Part shown: in pieces, positions 522 through 21,865 of the stretch
Layout: each line of letters opens with the position of its first letter
How positions within the stretch are numbered: the first letter of the stretch is position 1
Source of the DNA: Elusimicrobiota bacterium
GTDB taxonomy: Bacteria; Elusimicrobiota; Elusimicrobia; UBA1565; JACRDR01
Assembly: GCA_041694815.1 (NCBI GenBank)
Contig: JBGFSC010000007.1
Span: forward strand, 32,001-96,000
Direction of reading: 5' to 3'
DNA length: 64,000 nucleotides
The notes under the pieces: model-generated
Databases searched by the model: none
What the model saw: the letters and a program-made list of their open reading frames with translations, nothing else
What the model was told of the DNA's origin: nothing
Program-made: the position numbers and the translations under genes

Positions 522-546
522 GTCAAAAAGGCTTCGAAGCGATGGC

Positions 547-2216: not shown

Positions 2217-2221
2217 GACGA

Positions 2222-5025: not shown

Positions 5026-5087
5026 ATATCCGGACCGTTTATATCAGGCATTTCTTGTTTAAGCAATACATTCTCAAAGAGAATTTT

Positions 5088-5933
5088 TTATTGAATTGCG
5101 CCGAAATCACAAATATCCTGACCGTGTATGGCCGCCTTCTCTTGCAAATCGACATCCATGGCTTCGTTGGCTAAGAAATTGTTGGAAAATAAGTTGATTT
5201 CGCTAGCCCCGGTTCCATATACGCCTATACGATTGTGCCATATCCTACAAGTCCGCACGTCCGCCTTGGCATCCGCGCTAGCACTGATCGCGGTATGATT
5301 TCGCTCCATGTGGGAGCCAACGACGGAAAAAACCGAAGCCTCCATCGCGTTGACCCCGCACTGCGCGCTATCAAAGACCCGACAGGCACCCAAGGAGGCC
5401 CGGGCTAAACCCTTAGCGGCCACCCCCGTGGCGTTATGCTGCAGCAGGCAATCCTCAAGCGAAACCTGCGCCCCCGCTTCGGCCAGGATACCAACGAATC
5501 GCTGCTCTCGTACGGAGCAACGTCGAAGCACAACGGTCGCCCGACCGCAGCAGTGGATCGCGTTTCCTCCACGGTAGAACGAACAGTCTGCAAGGCTCGC
5601 GGACGCCTCCTCATCGATCGTCAATAGATCACCATCTAGCCCCTCGAAGCGAGCATAAGATAGTACCCCTTGCGCGCGTTTGACGAAGCGTACACCCGAC
5701 CATTCGCCCTCGGGGAAGAAAAGGACCTCCTTCCCGGGCAATCCATCGACTCGAAGCACCCCCCTGACTTCGATCCCGGGCAGGCCGCGCTCGCCTCCGC
5801 GAAAAATCGCCTTGGTGCCCCTTGCGACCGTCAAAGTGCTGCCCGCTGGGACGACCACGGGGCCCAGAACTCGGACGATGCCTTCCCATCTCGATCCCAC
5901 CTCGCCGCTGGAGACAACGGTTTCACGAAGCAT
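5088..5933 (-). CDS. Right-handed parallel beta-helix repeat protein
   Basis: 'VLGPVVVPAGSTLTVARGT...VRGVLRVDG...WSGVRF' followed by repeats ending N-x-x-G-V. Confidence 0.8.
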   Translation of the reverse strand: MLRETVVSSGEVGSRWEGIVRVLGPVVVPAGSTLTVARGTKAIFRGGERGLPGIEVRGVLRVDGLPGKEVLFFPEGEWSGVRFVKRAQGVLSYARFEGLDGDLLTIDEEASASLADCSFYRGGNAIHCCGRATVVLRRCSVREQRFVGILAEAGAQVSLEDCLLQHNATGVAAKGLARASLGACRVFDSAQCGVNAMEASVFSVVGSHMERNHTAISASADAKADVRTCRIWHNRIGVYGTGASEINLFSNNFLANEAMDVDLQEKAAIHGQDICDFGAIQ

Positions 5934-5940
5934 GGTCCTC

Positions 5941-7134
5941 TCAGCCGACGTCCCGATAGGCCTTGCCCCAGGACTTGCCGAAACCGAGCGCCATGCCTCG
6001 GTCCAGGATGGGATTGGCGATGCAGTTTAGCCAGCAATCGCAGCTGCAGGAATCAACATAGCGACGCTCGCGCTCCGCCTCGGCGGAGGTCCAAACGGCA
6101 TCAAAGGACCGCTTCGCCACGCTACCGATGGTCCTATGCTTGTTGACGGGGCAATAGAAAAGATTACCCTCGGGATCGAGCATCGCGTAGCGCTGTCCAG
6201 CCATGCAGTCCTTGAAGAAGCGCTCCTGCTTCCGGGCGTACTTCTTAAGATAGGCCCAATAGAGCAGGCGTGTCCAGAGCCACAGGGACTCGGCGGCCCG
6301 CCCCTCGCGCAAGCGTTCCCAGGCCCGCTCCTTGAGGCATAGGTCCATCAAGATAAGGTCGATCTGCGCCTCCACGGCCTCGAGCTCTTTCTTCTTCCAA
6401 TTGAAGGTTTCGGGCGCCTCAAGACCGCGGTGATTGACCACCAACTGGGCTCCGAACCACAGCCCCATACCGCTGACGAATCGGTAAGCGGGCCAAAGCT
6501 CTTTGTAATTCTTCGGCGTCACGGTCAGGCTGAAGGAGAAATCGACGCCGGGAAATTCCTTGCGCAGCATCTCCACCGAACGGACCAGACCACGAAAGGC
6601 TCCCTTTCGTCCGCGGATCTCATCGTGTTTTTTTTCCAGCCCGTCCAAGGAGGAGCCAAGCCAAACCCGCGCGGCGCCCGCCTCCCGGAAAGCGAGAAGC
6701 CGGCGACGGACGAGCTCGTGGTTCCAGAGATTGGTCAGTACGCCGATGGACGACTTGGGAAAATGGCCCGCAAGGAACCCGACCACATCGACGATTTCGG
6801 GCTTCATCATGGGTTCGCCACCGGTGATGACGACGATCTCGACATCCTTTAACAGCTTGGAGCCCGTGACGAAGCCACGGATCTGATCCAGGCCCATCTC
6901 GCGCGAGACGGAGCCCGGATCCTTGAAGGGCATCTCCCAATGATGGCACATGATGCACTTGAGGTTGCAGCGGTGCGTTAGCTCGATGTGGAGTTCTCGG
7001 ATCGGCTCGCCGTCCTTTCGTCCTCCCAATCGGGCCAAGCCACGTTCGAGCGGCTTCTCAAGCGCGGTGAGCACCTCTTCGAGTCGCCGCTCGGGCGAAG
7101 CCGGAGGCGTGATTTTTTCGTCGGTCACCTGCAT
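5941..7134 (-). CDS. Radical SAM/SPASM protein
   Basis: CNLKCIMC, TGGEP, SLDG, CMAG...PEGNLFYCP...CSCDCWLNC. Confidence 0.92.
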   Translation of the reverse strand: MQVTDEKITPPASPERRLEEVLTALEKPLERGLARLGGRKDGEPIRELHIELTHRCNLKCIMCHHWEMPFKDPGSVSREMGLDQIRGFVTGSKLLKDVEIVVITGGEPMMKPEIVDVVGFLAGHFPKSSIGVLTNLWNHELVRRRLLAFREAGAARVWLGSSLDGLEKKHDEIRGRKGAFRGLVRSVEMLRKEFPGVDFSFSLTVTPKNYKELWPAYRFVSGMGLWFGAQLVVNHRGLEAPETFNWKKKELEAVEAQIDLILMDLCLKERAWERLREGRAAESLWLWTRLLYWAYLKKYARKQERFFKDCMAGQRYAMLDPEGNLFYCPVNKHRTIGSVAKRSFDAVWTSAEAERERRYVDSCSCDCWLNCIANPILDRGMALGFGKSWGKAYRDVG

Positions 7135-7209: not shown

Positions 7210-8481
7210 TCAGCGCGCCAAGACACTGCGGTAAACGGCGTCGAGTTGATTCGCCCTGCGCGTCCAGGAGTGGGAGGACTCGACGAAGGCCCTGCCGCCG
7301 GACGACAGCCGTTCCCAGAGTGCCTCATCTTCTAGAACTCGAAGCGTCTGCGCCGCGAACGCCCGAGGGGAATCGGCCAGCAGCAACTCCCTGTCGGCAA
7401 CCCCTTGGATCCCCTCGTTGGCGCAGGAGGTCGCCACGACAGGGGTCCCAGCGGCGAAGGCCTCCAAGAGTTTTCCCTTTATCCCCTGGCCGAGTCGGAT
7501 GGGAGCCACCAGCGCCATCGCTCCGGTCTCGTACGGCTTGACGTCCTCCACGGTCCCGGTGACGGCGATGCGCCGGTCCCACTCGGCCAAACGGCGGATC
7601 GGCTCGGTCGGGTAGGAGCCGACGATGGTGAAGCGGACGCTAGGCCGCCGCCTCCATATTAAAGGCAATATCTCCGTGGCGAACCAAAGCACTGCGTCCT
7701 CGTTCGGGTAGTGGGGATAATGGCCCACGTAAACGAGGTTATCAGGCTCGCGGTTTTGCCGGGGCGGCAGCTCCGCGAAATGTTCCAAGTCGACTCCGGT
7801 TGGAACAACGTGGATTTTTTTGGAGTCCGCGTGCCGGCCCAGCCGGCGGGCGTCCGCTTCCGTCAATACGATCATCCCATCCGGGTCGCAGCACACCTTC
7901 CGCGTGAAAAGAATGCGCCGCCACCAGGGGACTAGGCGCCGGAAGCGCCGCCAGCCGCTCATCTCTCGAAAATACGACCTAAACAGCGAAATCGAGCCCA
8001 TGTCATGATGTGTGAAAAGGCAAGGAATCTTGGGGAACTCTGCCTTGATCCAGCGGATATACGGGGCCATCAAGTCGAACTCAACGTGCACCAATTCGAC
8101 GTGCCTGTCCCGGATCAGTTCATAAATTTTCTCGCGCATCGATGACGCGTAAAAGCGCCGCACGTCCTCGGGAACGGCGGTACCATCGAGGCGCTCCATG
8201 CCGGGCTCAGGCTCGTAACTGTGCGCTACCGTATGGATGTCATCGAAAATACCGCGGAGATGGACGTGTTCGAGCCTAATGAACTGCGCCGTGTTGCGGG
8301 CGGCGTCCGCTTCGGGGTCCGAGATACCCGAATACGAGCGCCATGGATTAAAGAAGGTTAGCAGTTCGAACCGATAACGGTCCTTTAGGTATTTGCAGGC
8401 CGTCCACACTCGGCGGGAGCCGGCGTCTACTGGAAAAGGTGCCCAAGGCGTTACCATCAGCACGCGAGGCGATGGACTCAT
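7210..8481 (-). CDS. Glycosyltransferase family 4 (GT-B)
   Basis: VVPTGVD, YVGHYPHYPNEDA, APIRLGQGIKGKLLEAFAAGTPVV. Confidence 0.9.
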   Translation of the reverse strand: MSPSPRVLMVTPWAPFPVDAGSRRVWTACKYLKDRYRFELLTFFNPWRSYSGISDPEADAARNTAQFIRLEHVHLRGIFDDIHTVAHSYEPEPGMERLDGTAVPEDVRRFYASSMREKIYELIRDRHVELVHVEFDLMAPYIRWIKAEFPKIPCLFTHHDMGSISLFRSYFREMSGWRRFRRLVPWWRRILFTRKVCCDPDGMIVLTEADARRLGRHADSKKIHVVPTGVDLEHFAELPPRQNREPDNLVYVGHYPHYPNEDAVLWFATEILPLIWRRRPSVRFTIVGSYPTEPIRRLAEWDRRIAVTGTVEDVKPYETGAMALVAPIRLGQGIKGKLLEAFAAGTPVVATSCANEGIQGVADRELLLADSPRAFAAQTLRVLEDEALWERLSSGGRAFVESSHSWTRRANQLDAVYRSVLAR

Positions 8482-9836
8482 GTGCCCTGGTGCTGAAGAT
8501 AAAGCTCCCGCGCGATGGACGCTAAATTCCTTTCTTGAAAGTTAGCTGCGCGCAACCACTCGATCGGACTGAGATTCCATTTGTTTAAGAAAGCGCGATG
8601 GAAGTCTTTTCGACCGCCAACGGCGGCCGCGCGCAGCGGTCGAGAGTCCAACATGGCCGCCTCGGCCTGGAAAACATAAAAACCGTTTTGGCGAGCCTTG
8701 ATACATAGATCGATAACTCCGAAAGACCAGCCCAAGGCCGGATCGAACCCGCCCAAGGCATCTGACACGGCCCGCTGTAGCAAGAAACAGTCGTCGTGGA
8801 CCTGGGCGACGGCCCTTGTGGCGCCGCGATGGCGCAGCGCCCAGGCCTCGCCGTGGAAAAGCCAGTCCTTCCAGCGGGCCGGGGCGTTCTTGGCGCGCGA
8901 GGCGCCGACCAAGCCGGCCAAGGGCAGCTGTCGCGCTGATTCGGCGAGCTCGACGAAGGTTCCTGGATGAAGGCGCGCCGAAGGGGTCAGGAACAGCATG
9001 TGGCCGGCACTGCTGCGGCGAAGTTCCGCGTTGATCTGCCGGATAGCCGCCTCCTCGCCGTGGTAACGCAGCCAGCGAATCCCGGGCCAACGCTGGCCCC
9101 ACCGGCCAATTTGAAAGGCCCTTACGCTGTTTGGGACCAAAAAAGAGTTCCTTCGCAGCGGCGGTAGGCAGCGCCTCCATTCCGCGAGGCGGTATTCGGC
9201 CAACCCTGCCGGCGCGAACGCGATAAGTTCGATATCACGGTAAAAGTCCGGGCGCTGTACCCCCAAAAAGAGCGATTGGATCCGCTCCGAAAACGGTGAC
9301 GGCCCGGGCAGAAGCTCGATGGGAACCGCTAGACGGCCGGCGAACGTCTCCAGAGATCGGATGCCCCCTTTATCGGTGGCGAGTATCCAATCGGCAAGGC
9401 TGAGCAGGAATTCGGTCTTGGTGCGCTCACCCTCATTAAGCGGTGCCGGCAGCCATGGCCGATCTAGAACGATCACGTATGGGACATGGCGAGCATAGCT
9501 GTGCAGGGCCTCCAAGCATTGGGCGGCGGTCCGAGCCCCAATCAACACCACGCCCGAGATGAGCTCCTCGCTGATGAGGCGCTTGATCAAGGGGAGCGTA
9601 TCGACCTCCACCGCCTCGATGCCGGTGGACCCCGTGGGGATCCTCGCCCCGCCCGGTGCGGGCGCCCAGAAAATGCGCCATTCGGACGCCACCGCCCGCC
9701 AAAACCGCCCCCCAGGAGCAACAGCCGGATGGGACGAAGGCGGAGAGACGACCAGCAACTCCTTGCGGCGATCCCAAGTGGGCGGACCGCCGTTAAATGG
9801 GTTTGGAGGCATGATCTTGAACGAACTGCTGAACAA
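8478..9836 (-). CDS. Putative glycosyltransferase (degenerate GT2-like C-terminal half)
   Basis: C-terminal 'CFLLQRAVSDALGGFDPALGWSFGVIDLCIKARQNGF' resembles a GT2 C-terminus; no clear DxD; operonic with wzt and the GT4. Confidence 0.55.
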   Translation of the reverse strand: MFSSSFKIMPPNPFNGGPPTWDRRKELLVVSPPSSHPAVAPGGRFWRAVASEWRIFWAPAPGGARIPTGSTGIEAVEVDTLPLIKRLISEELISGVVLIGARTAAQCLEALHSYARHVPYVIVLDRPWLPAPLNEGERTKTEFLLSLADWILATDKGGIRSLETFAGRLAVPIELLPGPSPFSERIQSLFLGVQRPDFYRDIELIAFAPAGLAEYRLAEWRRCLPPLRRNSFLVPNSVRAFQIGRWGQRWPGIRWLRYHGEEAAIRQINAELRRSSAGHMLFLTPSARLHPGTFVELAESARQLPLAGLVGASRAKNAPARWKDWLFHGEAWALRHRGATRAVAQVHDDCFLLQRAVSDALGGFDPALGWSFGVIDLCIKARQNGFYVFQAEAAMLDSRPLRAAAVGGRKDFHRAFLNKWNLSPIEWLRAANFQERNLASIARELYLQHQGT

Positions 9837-10545
9837 TCTCCGCAGCCGGTCCGACGCCCTTTAATCTCCCCCCCGAAAGATAGACGCAACGATCGCAGGT
9901 CGACTTTACCTTGTCCATGTCGTGGCTCACCAGAATGATCGTTTTTCCATCGGCCTTGAGCCGTTCGAAAGCCTTCTGGCATTTCAACATGAATCGCATA
10001 TCCCCAACGGCCAGGGTCTCATCGACGAGGATGATGTCCGAATCCGAGTGGAGCGCCGTGGAGAAGAAGACCCGCGCCTGGAAGCCGCTGGAGAGCTCCA
10101 TGAATTCTGCGTAACGATACGGCTCAAGCTCGCCGAACTCGATAATCCGCTCCAGTCGGCGGTCCATCTCGCGCGAGGCGAGTCCCAGCAGCGCGCCGCA
10201 AAAACGAATGTTGTCTTCGACGCTTAGGGCCGCCAAGGAGGCGCTGCTAAGGCTCAAGATGGGCGTCCGCAGCTCGCCGCGGACCTCGACGCTGCCCGTG
10301 GTCGGCGCCATGATCTCGGCCAGGATCATCAGGAGAGTCGTCTTTCCGGAACCGTTCGGACCGATCACGCCCAGGCTCTCGCCGCGATAGACGTCGAAGG
10401 AGACGTCTCGAAGCGCCCAAAGCTCCTTTTGATTACGCATCACTCCGTTGCGGAGGCTTTTGAACAAGGTCTGCTCCGACCGCGAAGTGATATAAAAACG
10501 TTTGCCGACCGACGAGACCTTGACAACGGCTTCTTTCAAGGTCAT
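9793..10545 (-). CDS. wzt: Polysaccharide ABC exporter ATP-binding subunit (Wzt-like, no C-terminal carbohydrate-binding domain)
   Basis: Likely start MTLKEAVV at 10545 (ATGA overlap with the permease stop); WALRDVSF, GPNGSGKTT, LSSG, IILVDE, VSHD. Confidence 0.9.
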   Translation of the reverse strand: MTLKEAVVKVSSVGKRFYITSRSEQTLFKSLRNGVMRNQKELWALRDVSFDVYRGESLGVIGPNGSGKTTLLMILAEIMAPTTGSVEVRGELRTPILSLSSASLAALSVEDNIRFCGALLGLASREMDRRLERIIEFGELEPYRYAEFMELSSGFQARVFFSTALHSDSDIILVDETLAVGDMRFMLKCQKAFERLKADGKTIILVSHDMDKVKSTCDRCVYLSGGRLKGVGPAAEIVQQFVQDHASKPI

Positions 10546-11315
10546 AGGTGGTCGACGATCGTGCCTTCCTGCGCCCGGAACCAGCGCAGGCCCGCGGCGC
10601 TCATCAAGACGCCTCCCAGGATGAGCCCGGTCACGATCCACGGCGGCGGCACTTGAGAACGCAATAGGCACGCCCGCATGCCGTCCATGATATGGACGAT
10701 CGGATTGAGCATCAGCCAGAACCGCTTGTTCTCGGCGATCAATTGCAGGGGATAGAAGACCGGTACCGCGAAGAAGCCAACCTGCATCACGATGGCCCAA
10801 ATGCGCTCCATGTCGCGGTATTTCAAGGCTAGGCGCGCCAAGAAGAACGACACGCCCGCGACCCACAAAAGCTCGATGACGATCAGCACCGGCAGATAGA
10901 CCCAAGTCCACGCGGCGCCGATGAAGAAAAGGAGAAAGCCGAGCAGGATCAGCAACTCCAACAGATGTGACCAAAGGATGACGGCGATCGCGGAGAGCAC
11001 GACGATTTCCTTGGGAAACTTAAAATTCTTAAGGATACCCCCTTTCGACTGCAGGCTGCGCAAGGCGTTGGAGGTCGCGTTCGCTACGAAGCCCCATTGC
11101 ACCAGCCCGATGATCAGATAGAAGGCGTAGTTAGGTACGTGTTGCCCCATCCACTTGGTAAACAATTGGTACATTACCGTAAATACCAGGGCGGGATTGA
11201 GCAGGGTCCAGAAGAATCCCAAAAGCGTACCCTGATCGCGCAGCTTGAACTCGCACCGAGTCATTTCCCAGAGTAAGTTGCCGTACGTCGACCCCTTGAA
11301 GTGCGCCGGAATCAT
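10542..11315 (-). CDS. wzm: Polysaccharide ABC-2 exporter permease (Wzm-like)
   Basis: EFKLRDQGTLLGFFWTLLNP, YRDMERIW...PVFYP, LNPIVHIMDGMR; about 6 TM segments. Confidence 0.9.
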   Translation of the reverse strand: MIPAHFKGSTYGNLLWEMTRCEFKLRDQGTLLGFFWTLLNPALVFTVMYQLFTKWMGQHVPNYAFYLIIGLVQWGFVANATSNALRSLQSKGGILKNFKFPKEIVVLSAIAVILWSHLLELLILLGFLLFFIGAAWTWVYLPVLIVIELLWVAGVSFFLARLALKYRDMERIWAIVMQVGFFAVPVFYPLQLIAENKRFWLMLNPIVHIMDGMRACLLRSQVPPPWIVTGLILGGVLMSAAGLRWFRAQEGTIVDHL

Positions 11316-11364: not shown

Positions 11365-14300
11365 GTGGCAGACGGGCATAAGTTAGACTTTTTCGCAAAA
11401 GTGCTTCTTCATAGAGTGGAAGGCACCTCGATGAGTTTCCTCCTCGAGGGCGGTGATCTGATCCTAGCGAAACCCGTGTCCGCCAAAAGCCTTCGTTTCG
11501 GGGATTTGGTCGTCGTCAAGGGGCGGCAAGGGCGTGAATTCCCTCGAAAGATCGTCCACCGCTACTTGGGGAAATTCCGCAAAAACGGGCGACTGTTCCT
11601 GATCACACGCGGCGACGCGCAGGTTTTCTTCGACGAGCCCGTCCCGCAAGAACGCCTGCTCGGCAAGGTCTTTATGGTGCGCCGGAGCCATGGGTGGATC
11701 TCCTTGGAAGCCTGGTGGTCCCGTGCGATCCACGTCCCCATCGGGGCTTATTCCTCATTGATCCACGCCGCCGCCGCGGTGGCCGCCGCCGTCTTCCGCG
11801 CCGCGGCGTTGTTCGCCTATCCGCGAGCGTCGGCGGCTGGTTCCGGGCCGCTTTCCTTACTTTTCTCGACGATCGATGCCTGGTTCCGAGGCGCCGAGCT
11901 CATTCTCCGCGGTATCCTCTCCATCCCAGCCGGCCTGCCGCTGCGCCTGCTCGGCGCCGCCGCGCTGCCGCGCCTGGCGCCTCCGGCGGGCCTGAGCGGC
12001 CGCCTCGAAAACGTAACCCTCCGCGGAACGGTTAAGATATCGGGCGATATCGTAATTCCGGCGGGTTCGACGGTCGTCGTCGAGCCCGGTACTCGGCTGA
12101 TCCATGAGGGAGGACTCGGCGTGCCGGAGATCCTGCGACCCACCAAGACCGGCTGGCGGCCCGCGACTCATCGATCCCATCGCAATTGGATCGTTTACGG
12201 CGCGCTGGACCTCCGAGGCGACCCGTCCAAGCCGGTCGAGCTCTCCGGCAAACGACCGGCCCATTTCCTGTTCCTGGGCCGGTCTCGAGGGAGGCTAGAG
12301 AGTATCCAATCCGCTCCAGGGGCTTCGGCATCCGTCAGTTGCTGGGATTGGTCGAAGGTCGTCGTCGCCGGCTCCGAACTTCGCTTGAGCGCCGCCGTCA
12401 GCGCGTTCGAATCGGCCCGACTCACGGTGCGGGACTCGAGTTTCTCCGGTCCTGATACGGCGTTGTGCGCCGATGACCGCGCGGCGCTATTGTTGCTCCG
12501 AACCTCGTTGAGAGGCTTCCATACCCCGCTCTCGATGAGCCTTCGTTCCCGGACGACTCTGACGGAATGCGTGATCTCCGGCGGCGCCTTCGGCCCGCTC
12601 GTCTCCGGCGCAGCCCGGATCGCGCTGCTTCGCTGCCGGCTGACGGCCGTCCAGGGGGCCCCGCTGCGCCTGCTACACCACTCGGAAACCCGCAGCCGAT
12701 CGACGATCTTCGAATCCTGCGGGGCGGGTGTGCAACTACGTGGACAGGCCGCCTGGCGATCGTCGAAGGACCGGCTTACCGGCTTCGATGGCGCAGCCGT
12801 CCAGGCGTCAGACAAGGCGCACTATTTCGCATACCAATCCCTGCTCGAGCAAAACGGCGTTGGACTCGTGGCGGATGGCGCCGCGACGATCGAGGCCGAA
12901 GGCTTGCGGATCTCGCGCTGCGATCAGGGAATTCGAATAGCCGAACTAGCGCACGCGACTCTTAAGGAGACCCGGATTTCCAACTGCGGACACGGCATCT
13001 TGCAGCTTGACCGCTCCACCGTCAAGGTCGCCCACGCCGCCTGCGATGATTGCGGAAGCGGGTGGTCCGCCGAGGGCAGCGCCTCGATCAGCGCCAAAGG
13101 GCTTTCGATATCGAGAGCAAAAGGCCATGGCATGTCGCTCAAGGGGAACGCGGCCTTCCGAGGCGACCTCACCGCGGAGTCCTGCGGGGAGGCGGGCCTC
13201 TTCCTGGCCGGCAACGCCGCTGCCGAGCTCGTCGACGGCCGCCTGGACGGCAACCGCACTGGTTTGCTGGCAATCTCGGGTCGCTCCATCCTCGCTTCAA
13301 CCTCCGCTTTTAACAACCACGAAGTGGGCTGCGATTTTCAAAACGGAGAACACGTCCAGAAGGCGGTCCGGATCGTCGGTTCGCCGATCGGGATAGGCGC
13401 CTACAAGCAGGCGCGGGTCAATCTGGAAGGATGCGAAATCACCGGTTGCGGCACCGGCGCGTTCTTGCAGGATGCCTCCAGCTTGGACGGCCGCGCGCTC
13501 TCATTGACAGGCTGCGGCATTGGCTGCATCGCGGAAGGCGCCGCGCGGTTCGAGGCGGCGGACCTCGAAATCTTCGGAGCCGGATCGCATGGGATTTGGC
13601 TCAAGGATAAGTCCGTCGTCACCGGCAATCTGACGATCGCCTCCTGCGGGGGCCCTGGAATATATCTCACAGGCGAGGAGGCTTCTCTTTTCTTGTCGAA
13701 AGGCATCTTACGGGAGAATCGAGCCGGCTTGATGGCCCTATCAGGCCATTCAAGGCTCTGCGCCGTTCTGCTCGAAAAAAATAGGGAGATCGGCATAAGC
13801 CTACAAGGCGGGCGACACGTGGGTAAGGAGCTTCACATAAATGATTCTCCGATAGGGCTTGGGACCTATCGGCAAGCGCGGACCGACCTTGAGGGATGCG
13901 AGATCGCCAACTGCGCCACCGGCTTCTTCCTGCAAGACGCCTCGATCATGAGCTCCAGCGGACTGTTGATCAAGAACTGCGAGGTCGGCTGCATCGCGGA
14001 AGGCGCCGCGCGGTTCGAGGCGAAACAGGCTGAAATACTCTGTAGCGTGTCGCATGGGATTTGGCTCAAGGATAATTCGCTCTTGACCGGCTTTCTCACG
14101 GTCCGGGATTCGGGAGGCCCGGGCCTCTACCTAACGGGTGACTCCCGGGCCGAACTCTCCGGCGGAGGCTTTTTTAACAACCGAACGGGCATGCTCGCCC
14201 TGGCGGGAAGCTCTAGATTGGCGAACATGGATTTCATCGGCAATCGCGAAATCGCCTTGAGCGTTCACGGAGGCAGGCATTCTCTGCAAAGCGGCTCCCT

Positions 14301-16671
14301 GAGGGATTCTCCATCGGGCTTGGAGACATATGGCGACGGCAGGCTGGAATTCGAACATTGCCGCGTTTCGCGATGCCGGCAGGGCGCGCATTTGCAGGAC
14401 CGGTCCATCCTAAGCACCCTCGAGAGCGCGATCGAAGACTGCGGCATCGGCTGCATTGCGGAAGCCAATTCCTCCATCGAGGCGAACGGCCTAGGCGTGA
14501 CGCGTTCCGCCTCCCATGGCGTTTGGCTGAAAGGATGCGCGCGCTTGGCCGGCATCCTCTCCGCCGCACGTTGCGGCGGTCCTGGCATCTACATCACCGA
14601 CGAAGCGCGCGCAGAGCTGTGCGGGGGCCGACTGCAAGAAAATCGCGCGGGACTGCTAGCAATGTCGGGGACTGCCGTATTGCGCGACGTCTCGCTGGAG
14701 GCGAACCTGGACATCGGCATCAGCCTTCAGGGCGGCCGCCATCGCTTGGAGGCCACGGTGTTGGGGGGGTCTCCGGCCGGCATCGGGATTTATGGCGAGA
14801 CCACCGCCGATCTTACCAATTGCCGCTTGGAGTTGTGCCAACAAGCCATCTCACTTTTCGACCGCGCCGTCATGACTGGACGTAAAATCGTCATCGCCGG
14901 CTGCAATATCGGCTGCGTCTTGGAAAATGAGGCTCGCTGCGAGGCAGAAAGACTGGAAATTTCCGGAGCCCGCCTGCACGGGTTTTGGCTCAAGGGGAAA
15001 TCGCTGCTAACCGGTTCCTTGATCGTCCGAGGTTGCGGCGGGCCGGGCGTTTACCTGACAGAGGAGGCGCGCGCCGAGCTCACCGGAGGCGAATTGACTG
15101 GCAACCGAGTGGGCTTACTGGCCCTCTCGGGAACCTCGCTTCTAAGGAAAGTGAACCTCATAGAAAATCGCGAGATCGCCTTTAGCGCGCAGACAGGCAC
15201 GCACCGCCTCCTAGAGAGTTTACTGAGAGACTCCCCTATCGGGGTGGGGGCGCACGGTCGGGGGCGGGTCGAGCTTGAGGGAACTTCGATCGGCGCCTGC
15301 CACCAAGGAGTGTTGTTGCAGGAGGAGGCCGCACTGAGCGCCAAGAGCGCCACTATAACGGATTGCGAGCTTACCTGCATCGCGGAAGGGAGTACCTCCA
15401 TCGACGCCGAGGGGCTGACCATTACACGCTCGGCTTCTCACGGCGTTTGGCTCAAGGAGCGGGCTTTTCTTTTAGGCCGGATCTCCGTCAGCAGCTGCGG
15501 CGGGCCGGGCGTTTACCTGACAGAGGAGGCGCGCGCCGAGCTCACCGGAGGCGAATTGACTGGCAACCGAGTGGGGCTGGCGGCGCTCTCCTCCGAGTCG
15601 GAGATCCAAGGCGTTGCGATCGTAGGAAACAGAGAGACTGGATGCGGAATAGAAGGCGGCAGCCATCGCCTAACTGGAGTCCGCATTGAAGGCTCGCCCA
15701 CGGCTCTGTCGGTCCATAACCAGGCGCGCGTCGAGCTCGTCGACTGTCGGTTTTCGTCAAGCCGCTACGGCGTGCTCGCGCGGGACAGGGCGTTTTTGAC
15801 GGCTCGCGGCGTCGAGAGCAACGCCTGCGAAGTCGGCTGGTTCCTCGAGGGCGCATCCTCGGTCGCCGCAAGAAGCGCGAAAGCTAGCGACTGTTCGCTC
15901 CACGGCATCTGGCTCACGGATTTCTCCTACTTAAGCGGGACGGCCGAGGTCTCATCCTGCGCAGGAACCGGAATTTATCTTGACAGCGATGCCGTACTGG
16001 AATTGACCGCCGGCCGCGTCCACGGCAATCGCGCGGGAATCGTGGCATTATCGGGAACATCCAAATTAGAGAATCTGGAAGTCTTTAACAACCGAAAGAT
16101 CGGCCTAAGCCTCCAAAACGGCTTCCACCGGCTAGTCTCGGTCTCCGTCCTAGGATCGTCGCTTGGCGTCGGCGTTTATGCGACAACGGAGGCGGAACTG
16201 CTCGATTGCCGCATCGCCGCTGCGGAGGTTGGCATCGCATGCATGGGACGCTCCCATACGCTCTTGGCGCGATGCGCCTTCACCGGGGGCCGGATCGGGC
16301 TCTGGCTGCAGGAGCACGCACACGCCAAGGCATTCCTGTGCAGATTCAGCGGACACGCACCTTACGGGGCACGGATCAGCCATCGTGCGCAGGGAATGAT
16401 CCACGCCAGTTCTTTCATCGATAACCGTGGAATCGCCTTGCTAGCGGAAGAAGGCGGCTGCGCGCGCGTGGACGCCAGCATATTCATCGGCAACCCGACC
16501 GGAATTAAGCTGGCCGACGACAGCCGCGCCTGGATCCGATCGAATCGCATCTTCGATGCGGCCGTCGATAGCGTCTGGTGTCTCCGCGGAAACGCGCGAA
16601 CCTTCACCGGTAACCGAGTGGAAAACTCGCGCCGGATTCATGAGCCGCTATTCTCGAGCTTGCGGAAATAA
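11365..16671 (+). CDS. S24/S26-family peptidase domain fused to a giant parallel beta-helix repeat region (1768 aa)
   Basis: N-terminal VEGTSM...GDLVVV...IVHRY...ITRGDA (Ser-His signal-peptidase type), a hydrophobic segment, then >1400 aa of beta-helix repeats. Confidence 0.8.
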   Translation: MADGHKLDFFAKVLLHRVEGTSMSFLLEGGDLILAKPVSAKSLRFGDLVVVKGRQGREFPRKIVHRYLGKFRKNGRLFLITRGDAQVFFDEPVPQERLLGKVFMVRRSHGWISLEAWWSRAIHVPIGAYSSLIHAAAAVAAAVFRAAALFAYPRASAAGSGPLSLLFSTIDAWFRGAELILRGILSIPAGLPLRLLGAAALPRLAPPAGLSGRLENVTLRGTVKISGDIVIPAGSTVVVEPGTRLIHEGGLGVPEILRPTKTGWRPATHRSHRNWIVYGALDLRGDPSKPVELSGKRPAHFLFLGRSRGRLESIQSAPGASASVSCWDWSKVVVAGSELRLSAAVSAFESARLTVRDSSFSGPDTALCADDRAALLLLRTSLRGFHTPLSMSLRSRTTLTECVISGGAFGPLVSGAARIALLRCRLTAVQGAPLRLLHHSETRSRSTIFESCGAGVQLRGQAAWRSSKDRLTGFDGAAVQASDKAHYFAYQSLLEQNGVGLVADGAATIEAEGLRISRCDQGIRIAELAHATLKETRISNCGHGILQLDRSTVKVAHAACDDCGSGWSAEGSASISAKGLSISRAKGHGMSLKGNAAFRGDLTAESCGEAGLFLAGNAAAELVDGRLDGNRTGLLAISGRSILASTSAFNNHEVGCDFQNGEHVQKAVRIVGSPIGIGAYKQARVNLEGCEITGCGTGAFLQDASSLDGRALSLTGCGIGCIAEGAARFEAADLEIFGAGSHGIWLKDKSVVTGNLTIASCGGPGIYLTGEEASLFLSKGILRENRAGLMALSGHSRLCAVLLEKNREIGISLQGGRHVGKELHINDSPIGLGTYRQARTDLEGCEIANCATGFFLQDASIMSSSGLLIKNCEVGCIAEGAARFEAKQAEILCSVSHGIWLKDNSLLTGFLTVRDSGGPGLYLTGDSRAELSGGGFFNNRTGMLALAGSSRLANMDFIGNREIALSVHGGRHSLQSGSLRDSPSGLETYGDGRLEFEHCRVSRCRQGAHLQDRSILSTLESAIEDCGIGCIAEANSSIEANGLGVTRSASHGVWLKGCARLAGILSAARCGGPGIYITDEARAELCGGRLQENRAGLLAMSGTAVLRDVSLEANLDIGISLQGGRHRLEATVLGGSPAGIGIYGETTADLTNCRLELCQQAISLFDRAVMTGRKIVIAGCNIGCVLENEARCEAERLEISGARLHGFWLKGKSLLTGSLIVRGCGGPGVYLTEEARAELTGGELTGNRVGLLALSGTSLLRKVNLIENREIAFSAQTGTHRLLESLLRDSPIGVGAHGRGRVELEGTSIGACHQGVLLQEEAALSAKSATITDCELTCIAEGSTSIDAEGLTITRSASHGVWLKERAFLLGRISVSSCGGPGVYLTEEARAELTGGELTGNRVGLAALSSESEIQGVAIVGNRETGCGIEGGSHRLTGVRIEGSPTALSVHNQARVELVDCRFSSSRYGVLARDRAFLTARGVESNACEVGWFLEGASSVAARSAKASDCSLHGIWLTDFSYLSGTAEVSSCAGTGIYLDSDAVLELTAGRVHGNRAGIVALSGTSKLENLEVFNNRKIGLSLQNGFHRLVSVSVLGSSLGVGVYATTEAELLDCRIAAAEVGIACMGRSHTLLARCAFTGGRIGLWLQEHAHAKAFLCRFSGHAPYGARISHRAQGMIHASSFIDNRGIALLAEEGGCARVDASIFIGNPTGIKLADDSRAWIRSNRIFDAAVDSVWCLRGNARTFTGNRVENSRRIHEPLFSSLRK
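13126..16362 (+). repeat. Seven intragenic ~154-aa (462-nt) tandem repeats
   Basis: HG(I/V/F/M)(W/S)L(K/T) motif starts at 13126, 13588, 14053, 14515, 14977, 15439 and 15901; 15034-15113 is identical to 15496-15575 (80 bp). Confidence 0.9.
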
Positions 16672-16674
16672 TTA

Positions 16675-17886
16675 TTGGTATCATCCACAATAATGGCTAC
16701 GCCCTCAAACGCACTTCCGCTGAAGCACAATGTACGGACCATGATCCGTTTGGGCGCCGATCCCATTGGAACGCTGGAGCGCGCCTACGTCCAAGATGTA
16801 CTCGACGGCCAGCGTCTTTCTTACGGCCCCTTCGTGGGCCGCTTTGAACGGCTTTTCGCGGAGGTGCACGCCTGCCGGTTCGCCGTATTCTGCAATAGCG
16901 GAACCAGCGCGCTGGAGGCCTCGATCCAAGCGCTTCGGGAGCTACATGGATGGCGCGATGGCGACGAGGTCGTCCTTCCGGCAGTGACCTTCGCAGCGAC
17001 CTTGCATGCGGTACTTAACAATCGCCTGCAGCCCGCATTCGTGGATGTCGATCCGCAGACCTTCCACATCGACGCGGCGAGAATCGAAGCAGCGATCGGG
17101 ATGCGTACCCGCGCGATCGTCCCGGTGCATCTCGCGGGCCTACCCTGCGACATGGACCCGATCCTTGAGATCGCGCGACGCCGCGGTCTGCTCATCCTAG
17201 AGGACTCCTGCCAAACGATGTATGCCCGATACCACGACCGGCCCGTTGGCTCATTGGGAGATGTGGGCTGCTTCTCAATGAATGTCGCCCACCATATCGA
17301 TGCCGGCATCGGCGGGATCGCGACCTCCAACCGTCCGGAGCTGGCCGATCTGATCCGCAGCCTGGTCAATTACGGACGCGACTCGAGAGAACTCGCAACC
17401 AACTCGCGACGATCCCGAACGCGCGCCGCCTCCATAGCGCGGCCGGCTCATAATTTTAGGCCCTCGGAACTCGAGGCGGCGATCGCCCTTGCCCAATTAG
17501 AACGTCGGGACGATATCGTGGCCGGTCGGAGACGTTCCGCGGAAACATATGCCGTCGGCCTAGCAGACCTACAAGATCGGCTTCAATTGCCCTCGATTCC
17601 GCCTGATCGCGAACATGCCTTCATGTTCTTTCCTCTGGTACTCAAACAGGGATTGAAGCATCCTCTCTTAAGGTTTCTGCAATCCAAAGGCATCGAAACG
17701 CGTGAGCTAGTCCCTTTGTTAAATCAGCCGATCTGCAAACGCCTCTTTGGCAATCTCGCTAAAGAGTACCCAGTAGCGCGCCGGCTCAACGCCCAGGCCT
17801 TTTGCATCGGCTGCCACCAGGACCTTTTGCGGGAAGACCAGCTCTACGTAGTAGAGCAGCTTCACCTCTATTTTGCGGACCACTAA
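16675..17886 (+). CDS. DegT/DnrJ/EryC1/StrS-fold PLP enzyme, His-type (probable NDP-sugar 3-dehydratase)
   Basis: CNSGTSAL, VPVHLAGLPCDM, ILEDSCQ; active-site segment FSMNVAHHIDAGIGG has His where aminotransferases have Lys. Confidence 0.85.
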   Translation: MVSSTIMATPSNALPLKHNVRTMIRLGADPIGTLERAYVQDVLDGQRLSYGPFVGRFERLFAEVHACRFAVFCNSGTSALEASIQALRELHGWRDGDEVVLPAVTFAATLHAVLNNRLQPAFVDVDPQTFHIDAARIEAAIGMRTRAIVPVHLAGLPCDMDPILEIARRRGLLILEDSCQTMYARYHDRPVGSLGDVGCFSMNVAHHIDAGIGGIATSNRPELADLIRSLVNYGRDSRELATNSRRSRTRAASIARPAHNFRPSELEAAIALAQLERRDDIVAGRRRSAETYAVGLADLQDRLQLPSIPPDREHAFMFFPLVLKQGLKHPLLRFLQSKGIETRELVPLLNQPICKRLFGNLAKEYPVARRLNAQAFCIGCHQDLLREDQLYVVEQLHLYFADH

Positions 17887-17892
17887 CGCCTT

Positions 17893-18882
17893 ATGCGGAT
17901 GTTGATCCTGGGTGGCACCGGATTCCTAGGGAGGCACCTCGTTGAGGCCGCGTCGGCACGCGGTCACCGCATCGTCCTCTTCAACCGCGGAATCACCGCT
18001 CCAAGACTCTTTCCGGAACTCGAGACCTTACGCGGGGACCGCCGGGGACCGCTTTCGCCGCTCGAGCACCGAACGTGGGACGCAGTCGTCGATACCTGCG
18101 GGTATTACCCGTGGGAAGTGGACCGTTGCGTCCGCGCCCTTGCCGCCAAGGTTGGCCACTACCTATTCGTGTCCAGCATAGCGGTCTACGCTGATTTCGG
18201 GAAACATCGAATCACCGAGAACGAACCGACGATCGAGCCGGTGTCTGGAATCGGGGGGTTCTGCGGCGAAGTGACCTTAGACAATTACGGATCCTTGAAG
18301 TCGGAATGTGAACGATCACTGTCGAGCCTACTGCCAGAACGGGCCCTCACCATCCGTCCCGGGGTCATCGTGGGTCCCTGGGATCCCCTGGACCGGCTGG
18401 GTTACTGGGTCCGCAAAGCGCGGGAACCGGAGGGAGCCGCACCGGGCAGGCCGGAACGCGCCATCCAACTCATCGATGTCCGCGATCTCGCGCTATGGAT
18501 GGTCCGGATGCTCGAAGCAGGTCAGACCGGAGTTTTCAACGCGTCGGGCCCCGGGGAACCCCTCACCATGAACCGCATCCTTGAGGCCTGCGCCCGGCGG
18601 CACGCGCAGCGCACTCGGTGGACATGGGTTGCTGATTCCATTTTGGTTGCCAACGGGATCAGACGCCTGCCGCTGTGGATGCCTGAAGACAAGAACAACG
18701 CCGGTTTTTTTAACGTAGATTCGAGCAAGGCCGTCCAAGAAGGCCTTGCCTTTCGCCCTTTCGCGGAAACCGTCGATGCCGTCGCCCGTTGGGCGGAGGG
18801 GTGCCAGGTACCGACGCCTTTCGGCTTGACGCCAGACCAAGAACGGAGCCTCATCGCGACCACGGCTCGCAATGTCGGCTAA
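17893..18882 (+). CDS. NAD-dependent epimerase/dehydratase (extended/atypical SDR)
   Basis: LILGGTGFLG, FNRG, YGSLKSECE (YxxxK), IRPGVIVGP, IDVRDLA. Confidence 0.88.
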   Translation: MRMLILGGTGFLGRHLVEAASARGHRIVLFNRGITAPRLFPELETLRGDRRGPLSPLEHRTWDAVVDTCGYYPWEVDRCVRALAAKVGHYLFVSSIAVYADFGKHRITENEPTIEPVSGIGGFCGEVTLDNYGSLKSECERSLSSLLPERALTIRPGVIVGPWDPLDRLGYWVRKAREPEGAAPGRPERAIQLIDVRDLALWMVRMLEAGQTGVFNASGPGEPLTMNRILEACARRHAQRTRWTWVADSILVANGIRRLPLWMPEDKNNAGFFNVDSSKAVQEGLAFRPFAETVDAVARWAEGCQVPTPFGLTPDQERSLIATTARNVG

Positions 18883-18908: not shown

Positions 18909-18937
18909 TTGACAGGATAAATTCAGTCTATTAGCAT
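18909..18937 (+). promoter_or_regulatory. Sigma70-type promoter for the peptide/RRE operon
   Basis: TTGACA (18909-14), 17 nt spacer, TAGCAT (18932-37), with an A-rich tract upstream; 10 nt before ATG 18948. Confidence 0.75.
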
Positions 18938-18947
18938 ATGGTGTCCC

Positions 18948-19058
18948 ATGAAAAAGCCGCGTAATAAGGGCAAGAACAAGAAGAGGAAGTGGACCCCGCC
19001 GACCCTGACTCGACACGATCAAATCTACTCCTCTCCCGTCGCGGCGTATCCTAGCTAA
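18948..19058 (+). CDS. Putative RiPP precursor peptide, 36 aa
   Basis: Hand translation MKKPRNKGKNKKRKWTPPTLTRHDQIYSSPVAAYPS*; Lys-rich N-terminus plus WxxPxL motif; 14 nt upstream of a PqqD gene. Confidence 0.8.
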   Translation: MKKPRNKGKNKKRKWTPPTLTRHDQIYSSPVAAYPS

Positions 19059-19072
19059 CAGCCCGACAGCTC

Positions 19073-19357
19073 ATGCCGCCGAAGGATTTCAAGAATAAAT
19101 CCATCCGTCGCAATCCACGCGTGGCATGGAGGATGGTCGGGGAAGAAGCGGTGCTCGTTCACCTGGAAAGGAATTTCTATTTTACCCTCGATGCAGTGGG
19201 CTCCCGGATTTGGCAGAATCTTGACTCCGAAACCTCCTGGGATGGTCTGGCCGCCTGGGCGAAAAAAGAATACGATGGGCCTGAAAAAGCCATCGAATCT
19301 GATTTGAGCCGTTTCATTGATCAAATGGCCAAGGAAAACATCATTCTTGTCGGCTGA
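19073..19357 (+). CDS. PqqD-family RiPP recognition element (stand-alone RRE)
   Basis: 94 aa; RRNPRVAWRMVGEEAVLV...YFTLDAVGSRIWQNL...EYD...IESDLSRFIDQMAKENII is the typical PqqD pattern. Confidence 0.92.
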   Translation: MPPKDFKNKSIRRNPRVAWRMVGEEAVLVHLERNFYFTLDAVGSRIWQNLDSETSWDGLAAWAKKEYDGPEKAIESDLSRFIDQMAKENIILVG

Positions 19358-19361
19358 AACG

Positions 19362-20546
19362 TTGGTCAATCCGCCGACCGTCAGCATCGTGATTCCCTGC
19401 TGGCGGCAATCGGCGAGCCTGTGGCCCAGCCTTAATGCCTGCCTGAAACAAGACTACCCCGCGTTGCGCGAGATCATCGTCGTTCATCGCGACTTCACAA
19501 GCGAAGAAAAGGCGCGGCTGGCCGATTGGCCGGTGGTGTCCCAAGAGGTCCGTAGGCCCGGCCCTGCGGCCGCCCGAAATCTCGGCGTCCGAGCCGCACA
19601 CGGCGAATATATCGCCTTCATCGACAGCGATTGCGTGCCGGAACGCCCTTGGTTGAAGCGGCTCATCCAATCCCTCAACCATCCCTCCATCGTCGGTGCA
19701 GGAGGCAGGGTGCGCTCGGCCGTTCCCAGAACTCCCACACAACATTATTTGAATCGAATGCAGGACGCCGGAGTCTTCTTGAATCAAGAATATTCATTCT
19801 ATGACGAGTTCCCTTTGCCGTTTCTTACCACACAGAATTGCCTCTACTTGCGCCGGGCGCTTCTTGCGGCCGGCCTGCTCGATGAAACCCTCCATTCTGG
19901 AGACGACCAAGACCTGCCGTGGCGGTTGATTTTGGAAGGCTGGCAAATCCGCTATGTGCCGGATGCCGTCGTCTATCATGAGCACCCCCGCAATCTTCGT
20001 AGTCTTCTGCGCCAGCACTTCCGGGCCGGACGAGCGGCGACGGATTTGATGGTCAAGTACGCGGACTTCCCGTTTCATCTCGCCGGAACCTGTCATCGCT
20101 TCTCCGCATACGCCTGGTATCTCCGCAAGGTGTGGTCCGGCTTTGCTCACGATTCCAGGCGCGACAAGGTCTTGACGACATTAAGAGTAACCGCAACCAT
20201 GGCGGGCCGCCTCTATCAGCGCTTGCGCCGGCTCCTGTGGGAACAGTTGCCGCGCCTGCCCCTTCCTGCGGAGGATTACGCATGGGTCCTTCATCGCGGC
20301 GGCAAGATTGTGTTGCAGGGGCTCAGGCGCTCCGAACGGATAGAGCTCAACGAATCCGCCTCCTTTATCTGGCTGGAGCACCTCAGGGGCGCTGATGACA
20401 GGACCGTCGCGCACCGCGTCGCGCAAGAGTTCGATGTCGGGACCGACGCAGCCGAGCAGGCGGTGTCGTCCTTGTTGAGTACGGTGCGCCGATTAAAAGT
20501 GAGAACACCCAAGCGGTCTGGAGAGCCGGCATGCCTCATCCAGTAA
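19362..20546 (+). CDS. GT2 glycosyltransferase fused to a C-terminal PqqD/RRE domain
   Basis: VSIVIPC, GPAAARNLG, FIDSDC, GDDQDLPWRL; C-terminal IELNESASFIWLEHLRG...VAHRVAQEFDVGTDAAEQAVSSLL. Probable TTG start at 19362 (ORF open from 19317). Confidence 0.85.
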   Translation: MVNPPTVSIVIPCWRQSASLWPSLNACLKQDYPALREIIVVHRDFTSEEKARLADWPVVSQEVRRPGPAAARNLGVRAAHGEYIAFIDSDCVPERPWLKRLIQSLNHPSIVGAGGRVRSAVPRTPTQHYLNRMQDAGVFLNQEYSFYDEFPLPFLTTQNCLYLRRALLAAGLLDETLHSGDDQDLPWRLILEGWQIRYVPDAVVYHEHPRNLRSLLRQHFRAGRAATDLMVKYADFPFHLAGTCHRFSAYAWYLRKVWSGFAHDSRRDKVLTTLRVTATMAGRLYQRLRRLLWEQLPRLPLPAEDYAWVLHRGGKIVLQGLRRSERIELNESASFIWLEHLRGADDRTVAHRVAQEFDVGTDAAEQAVSSLLSTVRRLKVRTPKRSGEPACLIQ

Positions 20547-21865
20547 GGCTCGAAAATTCGGCTGTGCTGCGACGCCACCTTCTGCGCCTGGGAGAAGGCG
20601 ACCCAAAAGTCGCCGCCCAAGCGCTTCGCTCCCTGAAAGCCGACCCCGCCATCGCCTGGGAACGTTTTTCCCACACGCCTTCTGAACGACGCGCCACCGA
20701 ACGAAGGCTAGGGGCAGGCTTTCCGGTGACCGTCCGTCGGCTCCTTGAGGACGCCACCCGAGGGTCCGCGGCCCTCCTTTACGACTTGGCGTCCTTGCAC
20801 GGCATACGCCCATGGATCGAACGGGGTATTGAGCGGACGCTCGGGAAGGCGGCACGCGAACGGTTCCGCGCCATCTGCTTCGCTTCCGATCACGCGGCCT
20901 ATCCGTATCAGCTGACTGTTTATCTGACGCATCAATGCAACAGCCGCTGTTCTTATTGCTTCGCGCTGGAAGACATGAAGAACGACCGCAGCTACATCTC
21001 GATGGAAAATTTCCAAAAGATTCTCGATTGGGCAAGGGGCCAGCCTATCTCCTGCCTGAACTTGCTAGGAGGCGAGCCGACCGTGCACCCTCGCTTTTCG
21101 GACTTCATGCGCATGGCCGGACGGCAAAAGCTTCTCGTATACTTCTCGACAAACAACCTATATCCGGAACGAGTGCTGCGGGCCATAGAGTCAGCGCGGG
21201 TCTTCAACATCCAGGTACACGCCATGGAACCGGAACAGTATCATCCCCAGCAGTGGAAAACCTTCCAACGCAATTTGGGGGCCATCTCGACGCGCGGCAT
21301 CCAGGTTTGGCTGCGCTACAATCTATACAGCCTTGATCAAGAGAAGAGATGGCACTTCTTGTTCGAGCTCTGCGAGCGATATCGACTACCCCGGATTAAC
21401 TTTGCCCTGACGTTTCCGGTGGGTGGAGGCGTCAACCGGCATGTCGCCCTCGCCGATTTTAGCCGTTTCGCAAAAATGACGGTGCGCTTCTTGAAGGAGT
21501 GCTCGAGTCGCGATATCGAGCCGGTGATCACAAAGTCCTTCCCTATCTGCTATTTTGAGCCGGAAGACCAAGCCTTCGTCATGGAGCGATGCCGCTTCCA
21601 GAATATCTGTACGGTCCAGCGCGCCGATTACACGTACAACATCATCGTCCGCCCCGATCTCAGCCTCGATCCATGCATAGCACTGAAATGGAAGCAAGGG
21701 AATCTGCTGGACTTTCGCGACCTGACGGCATTGGGTACGTTATTCAGGGATCGGATAGACTCCCTCCAAAAGGCGCCGTTGTTCGACGAATGCGAAACAT
21801 GCCCCATTTATCCACTCAACGTCTGCCAGGGCACGTGTCTCGCCTATAAGGACCTACCCGCCTAA
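20531..21865 (+). CDS. Radical SAM/SPASM protein, candidate peptide maturase
   Basis: CNSRCSYC, LLGGEPTVHP, C-terminal C...PC...CETCPIYPLNVCQGTC. Confidence 0.9.
   Translation: MPHPVRLENSAVLRRHLLRLGEGDPKVAAQALRSLKADPAIAWERFSHTPSERRATERRLGAGFPVTVRRLLEDATRGSAALLYDLASLHGIRPWIERGIERTLGKAARERFRAICFASDHAAYPYQLTVYLTHQCNSRCSYCFALEDMKNDRSYISMENFQKILDWARGQPISCLNLLGGEPTVHPRFSDFMRMAGRQKLLVYFSTNNLYPERVLRAIESARVFNIQVHAMEPEQYHPQQWKTFQRNLGAISTRGIQVWLRYNLYSLDQEKRWHFLFELCERYRLPRINFALTFPVGGGVNRHVALADFSRFAKMTVRFLKECSSRDIEPVITKSFPICYFEPEDQAFVMERCRFQNICTVQRADYTYNIIVRPDLSLDPCIALKWKQGNLLDFRDLTALGTLFRDRIDSLQKAPLFDECETCPIYPLNVCQGTCLAYKDLPA

Follow-up and report, generated by a model that had tools for sequence, protein, structure and literature searches.

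A GT2 glycosyltransferase fused to a RiPP recognition element, with a candidate peptide substrate and leader peptidase, in an Elusimicrobiota genome

The window analysed here, a stretch of 64,000 nucleotides from an Elusimicrobiota genome, carries at positions 19362-20546 a gene which sequence comparison and structure prediction confirmed to encode a GT2 glycosyltransferase whose catalytic motifs are intact and which carries a RiPP recognition element (RRE) at its C-terminus. The gene probably belongs to a leader-directed pathway for a glycosylated RiPP. In the scheme that we somewhat favor, on the grounds of sequence, structural models and analogy, the RRE-tethered GT2 glycosylates the tail of a neighboring 36-residue peptide, and an S26/SipW-like peptidase removes the leader. 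The fusion itself has been noted before; what is added here is its pairing with a candidate substrate family and a likely leader peptidase, which makes the proposal directly testable. If it is correct, the protein would be a leader-guided peptide glycosyltransferase. The genes for the peptide, a stand-alone RRE, the GT2-RRE fusion and an overlapping radical SAM enzyme follow one another in this order on the plus strand (Table 1).

Table 1. Features of the window discussed in the text
Feature	Position	Strand	Remarks
GT4	7210..8481	-	homologues at 4/4 of the other loci of the Elusimicrobia type; may transfer a further sugar
Wzm/Wzt (TagGH-like) polysaccharide-type ABC exporter pair	9793..11315	-	tie to peptide system uncertain
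1768-aa protein: N-terminal S26/SipW-like peptidase plus beta-helix repeats	11365..16671	+	SM/HR/GD intact
DegT sugar aminotransferase and NAD epimerase	16675..18882	+	no homologue in other loci compared
Sigma70-like promoter match, TTGACA-17-TAGCAT	18909..18937	+	10 nt upstream of peptide ATG; consensus match only
Candidate precursor, 36 aa	18948..19058	+	Lys-rich start, W15-x-x-P18-x-L20 recognition motif, tail ending VAAYPS
Stand-alone RRE, PqqD family, 94 aa	19073..19357	+	PF05402 57.1 bits
GT2-RRE fusion, 394 aa	19362..20546	+	TTG start; no transmembrane helix predicted
GT-A/GT2 catalytic core, ~residues 4-236	19371..20069	+	DxD D88-S-D90, putative catalytic base D182, H206
Two-helix linker, ~60 aa, H237-259 and H266-292, poorly conserved	20070..20267	+	between GT-A core and RRE
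Fused RRE, residues 303-378, ~76 aa, beta3-alpha3	20268..20495	+	N330 kept; A367 in place of Asp
Radical SAM enzyme, C-terminal Cys cluster	20531..21865	+	overlaps GT2-RRE stop by 16 nt; weak homologues elsewhere

Domain structure of the fusion protein

The preliminary description had read the gene as a complete GT2 domain followed by about 90 residues of PqqD pattern. The GT2 domain was recognized by Pfam (PF00535, E 7e-20), with D88 and D182 invariant in a 27-row alignment and H206 kept, and by sequence and model the protein has the features of the GT2 class (GT-A fold, DxD and catalytic Asp). The best NCBIfam match of the core was MftF, at 147 bits below the cut-off of 280; otherwise the core was nearest to generic polysaccharide GT2s, and the ESM Atlas gave generic GT2 clusters. 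The PqqD identity of the C-terminus stood as well, with PF05402 matched at E 3.5e-6 and 27.7 bits (31.3 bits in a search of the genome) against a cut-off of 23.4, and only its extent had to be refined to about 76 residues, 303-378. The strings quoted in that description were all found, both in the fusion (LNESASFIW at 329-337, VAHRVAQEFDV, AEQAVSSLL) and in the stand-alone protein (LDAVGSRIW, EYD, IESDLSRFI). The two genes are closely packed, the TTG of the fusion beginning 4 nt past the stop codon of the stand-alone RRE (19357), and their products gave the only two PF05402 matches above cut-off in the genome. The resemblance claimed between the two RREs was borne out by HHalign (probability 99.5%, E 3e-23 between the profile of the fusion family and that of the neighboring stand-alone RREs). 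Among solved RREs the family profile matched TbiB1 (4e-15), TfuB1 (6e-10), 9X8Z and 9X90; the RRE alone matched TfuB1 weakly by sequence (E 0.21).

A winged-helix fold of the C-terminal domain, the absence of which had been named beforehand as a possible refutation, was predicted by AlphaFold2, with strands at 306-310, 316-320 and 326-328 and helices at 331-341, 346-356 and 361-378. With the 27-row alignment the mean pLDDT of the whole model was 88, and ten-residue blocks across the strands and helices of the RRE reached 88-98, followed by a low-confidence tail of 16 residues; prediction from the single sequence was uninformative (pLDDT 37). Foldseek with the whole model returned GT-A folds only, among the matches listed, and so bears on the GT part.

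Candidate precursor, stand-alone RRE and leader peptidase

The residue numbers given earlier for the leader motif of the 36-residue peptide, W15, P18 and L20, were correct. The peptide contains no Cys, and neither it nor its relatives matched a Pfam or NCBIfam family. The scan that gave the promoter match in Table 1 found 2 sites where 0.4 were expected. Shine-Dalgarno sequences were not evident ahead of the starts at 18948, 19073 and 19362; most of the related peptides have a GGAG-type site. The 1768-residue protein gave the sole match in the genome to TIGR02228, the archaeal-type signal peptidase family (E 7e-11, below cut-off), and its beta-helix repeat part covers about 1500 residues. Its S26/SipW-like domain is likely the leader peptidase, and the stand-alone RRE is likely the partner of this peptidase.

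Recognition of the leader by the fused RRE

Structure prediction of the fusion together with the peptide gave a complex score of 0.75, compared with 0.01 for the best of 3 controls; of pairs with solved structures 116 of 157 attained the mark set for this score, as did 2 of 215 mismatched ones, counts that are a rough guide where custom alignments are used. The runs agreed in at least 64% of contacts, with a partner pLDDT of at least 59. In the model, RRE residues 318-374 contact peptide residues 12-27 in the classic mode, the leader lying along the beta3 and alpha3 cleft with N330 placed at the kink formed by the proline and W15 close to residues 357-359, and the interface resembles that of solved RRE-leader pairs; the pass may reflect this very likeness. 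The position of the peptide tail was uncertain, so that the model is neutral as to the active site. On this basis the WxxPxL leader of the 36-residue peptide is a predicted ligand of the fused RRE.

In LppB, N33 fixes the proline and D70 the tyrosine of the leader, and paeninodin RREs that prefer Trp are without these LppB-type N33/D70 contacts (PMC13381572). By alignment, N330 of the fused RRE occupies the site of LppB N33, and A367 occupies that of D70, a position held by Asp in 25 of 26 relatives. The window peptide is also the only one with Trp in the leader motif, the others having Tyr. The change from Tyr to Trp fits the lost Asp, as in the paeninodin RREs, and is consistent with co-adaptation, in one case only. 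The stand-alone RRE of the window, however, retains its Asp despite the Trp of the peptide.

Distribution of the family and its neighbors

Thirty-two homologues were chosen by length from the best 150 matches of an exhaustive search; of these, 26 had a C-terminal PF05402 domain, which scored above cut-off in 25. These RRE-bearing homologues aligned to the window protein at 23-29% identity. Full-length members occurred in 4 of 401 genomes of the same phylum, the window genome included, in 4 of 401 genomes of Omnitrophota (the phylum of genome G402), in G404 and in two more genomes among 168. Because the phylum-wide searches scored only some four candidates in each genome, these counts are lower bounds; the total came to at least 12 loci in 11 Elusimicrobiota/Omnitrophota genomes, ten besides that of the window. 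Order-level searches around three members yielded no new fusions in 5, 14 and 44 genomes. A pattern scan of genome contigs found at least two full-length relatives among 79 loci listed, and one of metagenomes found none among 80 loci listed. A word-index search with residues 200-394 matched the window protein alone, and such a search therefore under-reports the family. PF05402 as such was found in each of the 59 other genomes that were sampled from the order of the window genome (families 1/1, 10/10 and 48/48) and in 4 of 118 in family f4.

In all three trees the window glycosyltransferase branched apart from the main fused clade, on a divergent long branch, and it did not score against the family profile of the linker region. 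In a quick LG+G4 tree the main fused clade took in 11 of the 15 fused rows (SH-aLRT 97); long branches meet in this tree, and it neither rejected (p-AU 0.31) nor demonstrated one common origin of the fusion.

At 11 of the 12 loci the fusion had an intact Lys-rich [Y/W]xxPx[L/V] peptide of 32-57 residues no more than about 2 kb away, and a stand-alone RRE and an S26/SipW-like peptidase were likewise each present in 11. A fixed-rule search, the rule having been formulated after the peptides had been seen, was positive at 8 of 9 test loci and at none of 152 GT2 control loci without RRE; at the ninth test locus the peptide was present but masked by an antisense ORF. The controls came from the RRE-less loci of the pattern scans: 159 were entered, 7 without a GT match were removed, and 109 had at least 4 kb of flank. 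Four control loci had an RRE nearby and one had an S26 domain. A looser rule, allowing any start codon at any distance, found the peptide at 2 of 3 loci discovered later and not at one further control. The SM, HR and GD motifs were intact in all nine S26 domains aligned, one of them having AD for GD. No stand-alone RRE was found in about 25 kb around the G268 locus, which has two fusions, and no S26 domain was seen at L186, whose stretch starts at a contig end. Just behind the GT2-RRE gene of the latter (L186:1690-1857, genome G889) there is a leader-like stretch that lacks a start codon, and a tail-like one is read in a different frame; this is either a pseudogene or an assembly error.

Two subtypes could be distinguished. 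Six loci of the Omnitrophota group have an HprK-like kinase, and four of these also have a PF14907 nucleotidyltransferase. Five loci of the Elusimicrobia type share GT4 and radical SAM enzymes, and no kinase homologues were found in the stretches of these that were compared. The fusion partner of the S26 domain varies: beta-helix repeats in G268, a PF14907 nucleotidyltransferase in G775 and, together with a methyltransferase, in G729, and a domain without family assignment in G119, G151 and G404. An S-adenosylmethionine decarboxylase-like gene lies near three loci of the Omnitrophota group (L176:6730-7176, PF02675; L185:11031-11513; L187:16468-16944). The G775 locus (L177:7381-8335) has three tandem precursor copies with nearly identical tails. 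G268 has two GT2-RRE paralogues (L006:7297-8484 and L006:9977-11185) around a third GT2, with one peptide, an arrangement which suggests sequential leader-guided additions of sugar. RRE cassettes with radical SAM-RRE fusions and S26-like genes, but with no GT2-RRE seen, occur elsewhere in the Elusimicrobia phylum (L007:6689-6832 and L013:2771-2974); their YxxP precursors are longer and contain Cys.

The leader half of the peptides is conserved and the tail is not, shrinking to as few as 2-3 residues. With the core boundary set by analogy to LppA, where the aromatic residue stands at -16, or one residue further on, the predicted cores have 2-16 residues and no conserved acceptor position. Counting one tail for each locus that has an intact peptide, all 11 contain Ser, Thr or Cys, for which the rough chance is 0.002-0.008, an estimate affected by the choice of register after seeing the data and by the relatedness of the loci. 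Four predicted cores of Elusimicrobia begin with Ser or Thr, and that of the window would be (V)AAYPS.

Proposed pathway and alternatives

In the proposed pathway the fused RRE would grip the WxxPxL leader and so tether the precursor to the GT-A site, where the GT2 would presumably move a sugar from an NDP-sugar onto a hydroxyl or thiol in the short tail. The stand-alone RRE would present the leader to the S26/SipW-like peptidase, as LppB does to LppS (PMC13381572), and the leader would be cut off about 16-17 residues past W15 if the analogy with LppA (aromatic at -16) holds; the order of these steps is our assumption. The core so released would have about 5 residues, V/AAYPS, with Tyr or the C-terminal Ser as the putative acceptor. 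The conserved GT4 and the neighboring radical SAM enzymes may then extend or tailor it, and the product would be a small glycopeptide. A leader-dependent peptide glycosyltransferase had already been suggested in the preliminary description, and the suggestion gained support, at the level of sequence and models, from the co-occurrence with the precursor (11/12 compared with 0/152), the intact GT motifs and the complex model; the RRE fold, the RRE and S26 genes each at 11 of 12 loci, the pairing of Trp with Ala367 and the presence of Ser, Thr or Cys in all 11 tails argue in the same direction. The further suggestion made there, that the enzyme may add the first sugar, is a conjecture: the predicted cores have no acceptor residue in common. 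Points on the other side are the very short cores lacking a conserved acceptor position, the divergence of the window glycosyltransferase from the main fused clade together with its failure to score against the linker profile, the nearness of its core to MftF and polysaccharide GT2s in an island with a polysaccharide-type ABC exporter, and the Asp kept by the stand-alone RRE.

The tails without a fixed acceptor could be explained if the leader-bound glycosyltransferase did not act first but added its sugar to a pre-installed group such as a phospho-Ser, a sugar supplied by a different GT or a nucleotidyltransferase, or a residue modified by a radical SAM enzyme, possibly in a processive manner like MftF, its best NCBIfam match, which oligoglycosylates a RiPP-derived core (PMC7491314). 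The kinase in six loci could make an acceptor before the GT acts; HprK-like kinases and, in four loci, the PF14907 nucleotidyltransferase also recall LPP and pseudomycoidin, and the two paralogues in G268 would fit such a sequence of additions. We nevertheless consider this order of events unlikely, as no HprK-related kinase is present in the window genome, whose one PF14907 match is weak and lies on another contig, and as conservation across loci is lacking for the adjacent radical SAM enzyme. Alternatively, the peptide could be a ligand or scaffold that switches on or assembles the RRE enzymes, the glycosyltransferase acting on a surface glycan exported by Wzm/Wzt. A conserved leader next to a tail of down to 2-3 residues would be expected in this case, the island is rich in radical SAM enzymes and glycosyltransferases (24 of 44 ORFs with CxxxCxxC), and capsule loci also house LPP clusters (PMC13381572). 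An intact S26 domain of the leader-peptidase type accompanies the fusion at 11 of 12 loci, however, which implies a released product, and no Wzm homologue was found in the other loci compared; a scaffold role is therefore quite improbable.

The lost Asp, near-invariant in the relatives, the Pfam score of 27.7 bits, lower than that of most of them, and the long branch could also mean that the fused RRE is decaying in the window genome and that the enzyme is an ordinary glycan GT2. This appears very unlikely given that N330, L329, I336, W337 and F357 are retained and the fold is confidently predicted, that the peptide's Trp in place of Tyr matches the loss of the Asp, and that the gene is packed tightly behind those of the peptide and the RRE. 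Leader-directed glycosylation of the peptide thus remains the reading that we prefer. A more far-reaching version of it, to which we assign little probability, would make the 2-16-residue tail, rather than a bioactive product, a ribosomally produced primer on which the RRE-fused GT2 starts a glycan, GT2 and GT4 enzymes extend it, radical SAM enzymes tailor it and S26 removes the leader before export. If this were true, uncultured Elusimicrobiota/Omnitrophota would use the machinery of RiPP leader recognition to start a glycan that is secreted or placed on the cell surface.

Relation to known systems

The closest known system is that of the linear polyphosphorylated peptides, LPP (LppA-K-B-S-D-N), of Paenibacillus alginolyticus, described in 2026 (PMC13381572), and the S26/SipW-like peptidase ties the window system to that class. 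Shared with LPP are a discrete RRE (19073-19357), a SpI/SipW-like S26 peptidase with Ser-His-Asp, whose motifs agree in residue type with LppS S29/H68/D93, the [Y/W]xxPx[L/V] leader, variable C-termini, the lack of a lasso cyclase or B2 protease and the polysaccharide-locus setting (PMC13381572); the HprK-like kinase of LPP is also found in the six related loci mentioned above. Of the LPP leader YxxPxVLxHQxIxFETxxS, the aromatic residue, Pro, His(-8) and Ile(-5) fit here, and the FETxxS end is absent. The system differs from LPP in its GT2 with an RRE of its own, in cores of 2-16 residues instead of 45, in the fusion of S26 to beta-helix repeats, in a Wzm/Wzt-type exporter instead of MsbA and in its occurrence in Elusimicrobiota/Omnitrophota rather than Bacillota (PMC13381572). 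No match to the HprK-related kinase (TIGR04352) was found in the window genome (97.8% complete), and its one match to PF14907, below cut-off, lies on another contig, with none linked to the cluster. Membership in LPP was accordingly rejected for want of the HprK kinase, a linked PF14907 protein, an MsbA-like exporter and the FETxxS end. The system would work like an RRE/SpI pathway of the LPP type in which a fused glycosyltransferase replaces or joins the kinase. The main text of the LPP paper makes no mention of Elusimicrobia, Omnitrophota or radical SAM (PMC13381572).

With mycofactocin (MftA/MftB/MftC/MftE/MftF) the system shares a short precursor, an RRE chaperone, a radical SAM enzyme, a peptidase and a GT2, as well as a tiny core that becomes glycosylated, as is proposed here (PMC7491314). 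It differs in the RRE at the C-terminus of the glycosyltransferase, in S26 rather than MftE and in a peptide ending in YPS instead of Val-Tyr; mycofactocin was rejected on this missing C-terminal Val-Tyr and on scores of 147/280 bits for MftF and 41/265 bits for MftC. Glycocin glycosyltransferases (SunS, ThuS, GccA, ThgS) are also GT2s, and they O- or S-glycosylate linear precursors early (PMC11912497, PMC12457901). The contrast drawn earlier with SunS-type enzymes held, the family profile aligning to SunS over positions 4-93 only, and a glycocin was rejected on this ground, on the predicted recognition by an RRE and on the lack of Cys, disulfides and a double-glycine leader; no C39 peptidase-transporter was found among the window genes scanned. 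The lasso RREs (fusilassin TfuB1, TbiB1 and paeninodin PbaB1) are the closest solved ones and recognize the same [Y/W]xxPxL motif. The lasso B2 protease PF13471 was absent from the window genome, and the asparagine-synthetase-like cyclase PF00733 gave no match at the locus, with strong matches on other contigs and a weak one outside the window. A lasso peptide was rejected for lack of a B2 protease and of a cyclase-like gene at the locus, and for a core too short and without ring acceptor.

The architecture is less new than had been implied, as RRE-glycosyltransferase fusions were already known bioinformatically (PMC7470986, PMC12710340). The same domain pairing, outside known classes, is found among the RRE-Finder fusions of 2020 and 2025: one of the two papers counts such fusions among those that no known class contains (PMC7470986), Fig S7 of that paper appears to include a cyanobacterial example, and PF00535 is listed among RRE fusions (PMC12710340). 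As far as they were available, the RRE-Finder accounts name no precursor family for the fusion and report neither a link to a peptidase nor an experiment (PMC7470986, PMC12710340), and the available text of a survey of RiPP glycosyltransferases describes none as RRE-guided (PMC11912497). In the literature available to us we found no characterized RRE-fused glycosyltransferase and no account of this precursor family, members of which may be listed in supplements to the RRE-Finder and LPP papers. A leader-tethered glycosyltransferase with variable substrates of 2-16 residues, if true, would offer portable site-directed glycosylation of peptides by means of chimeric leaders. It also bears on the question raised in the LPP paper of why RRE/SpI systems occur within polysaccharide loci and which glycosylated products they finally yield (PMC13381572).

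Other neighbors in the island

The DegT and epimerase genes possibly supply the NDP-sugar. These two, the radical SAM enzyme and Wzm of the window are without close counterparts elsewhere and may therefore fall outside the core system. The Wzm/Wzt pair and GT4 are divergent from the 1768-residue peptidase gene. The region is an island rich in radical SAM enzymes: across positions 1-66000 of the contig (C48), CxxxCxxC was present in 24 of 44 ORFs of at least 150 residues. An array of radical SAM and B12-radical SAM genes covers window positions 1-7134 and the contig upstream, with short beta-helix-like genes interleaved (547-1266 and 5088-5933), and a similar set of genes flanks the G268 locus. 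Between the Wzt and GT4 genes, an ORF of 452 residues on the minus strand (8478-9836) matched no Pfam or NCBIfam family and showed weak likeness to GT2-containing neighbors in G268.
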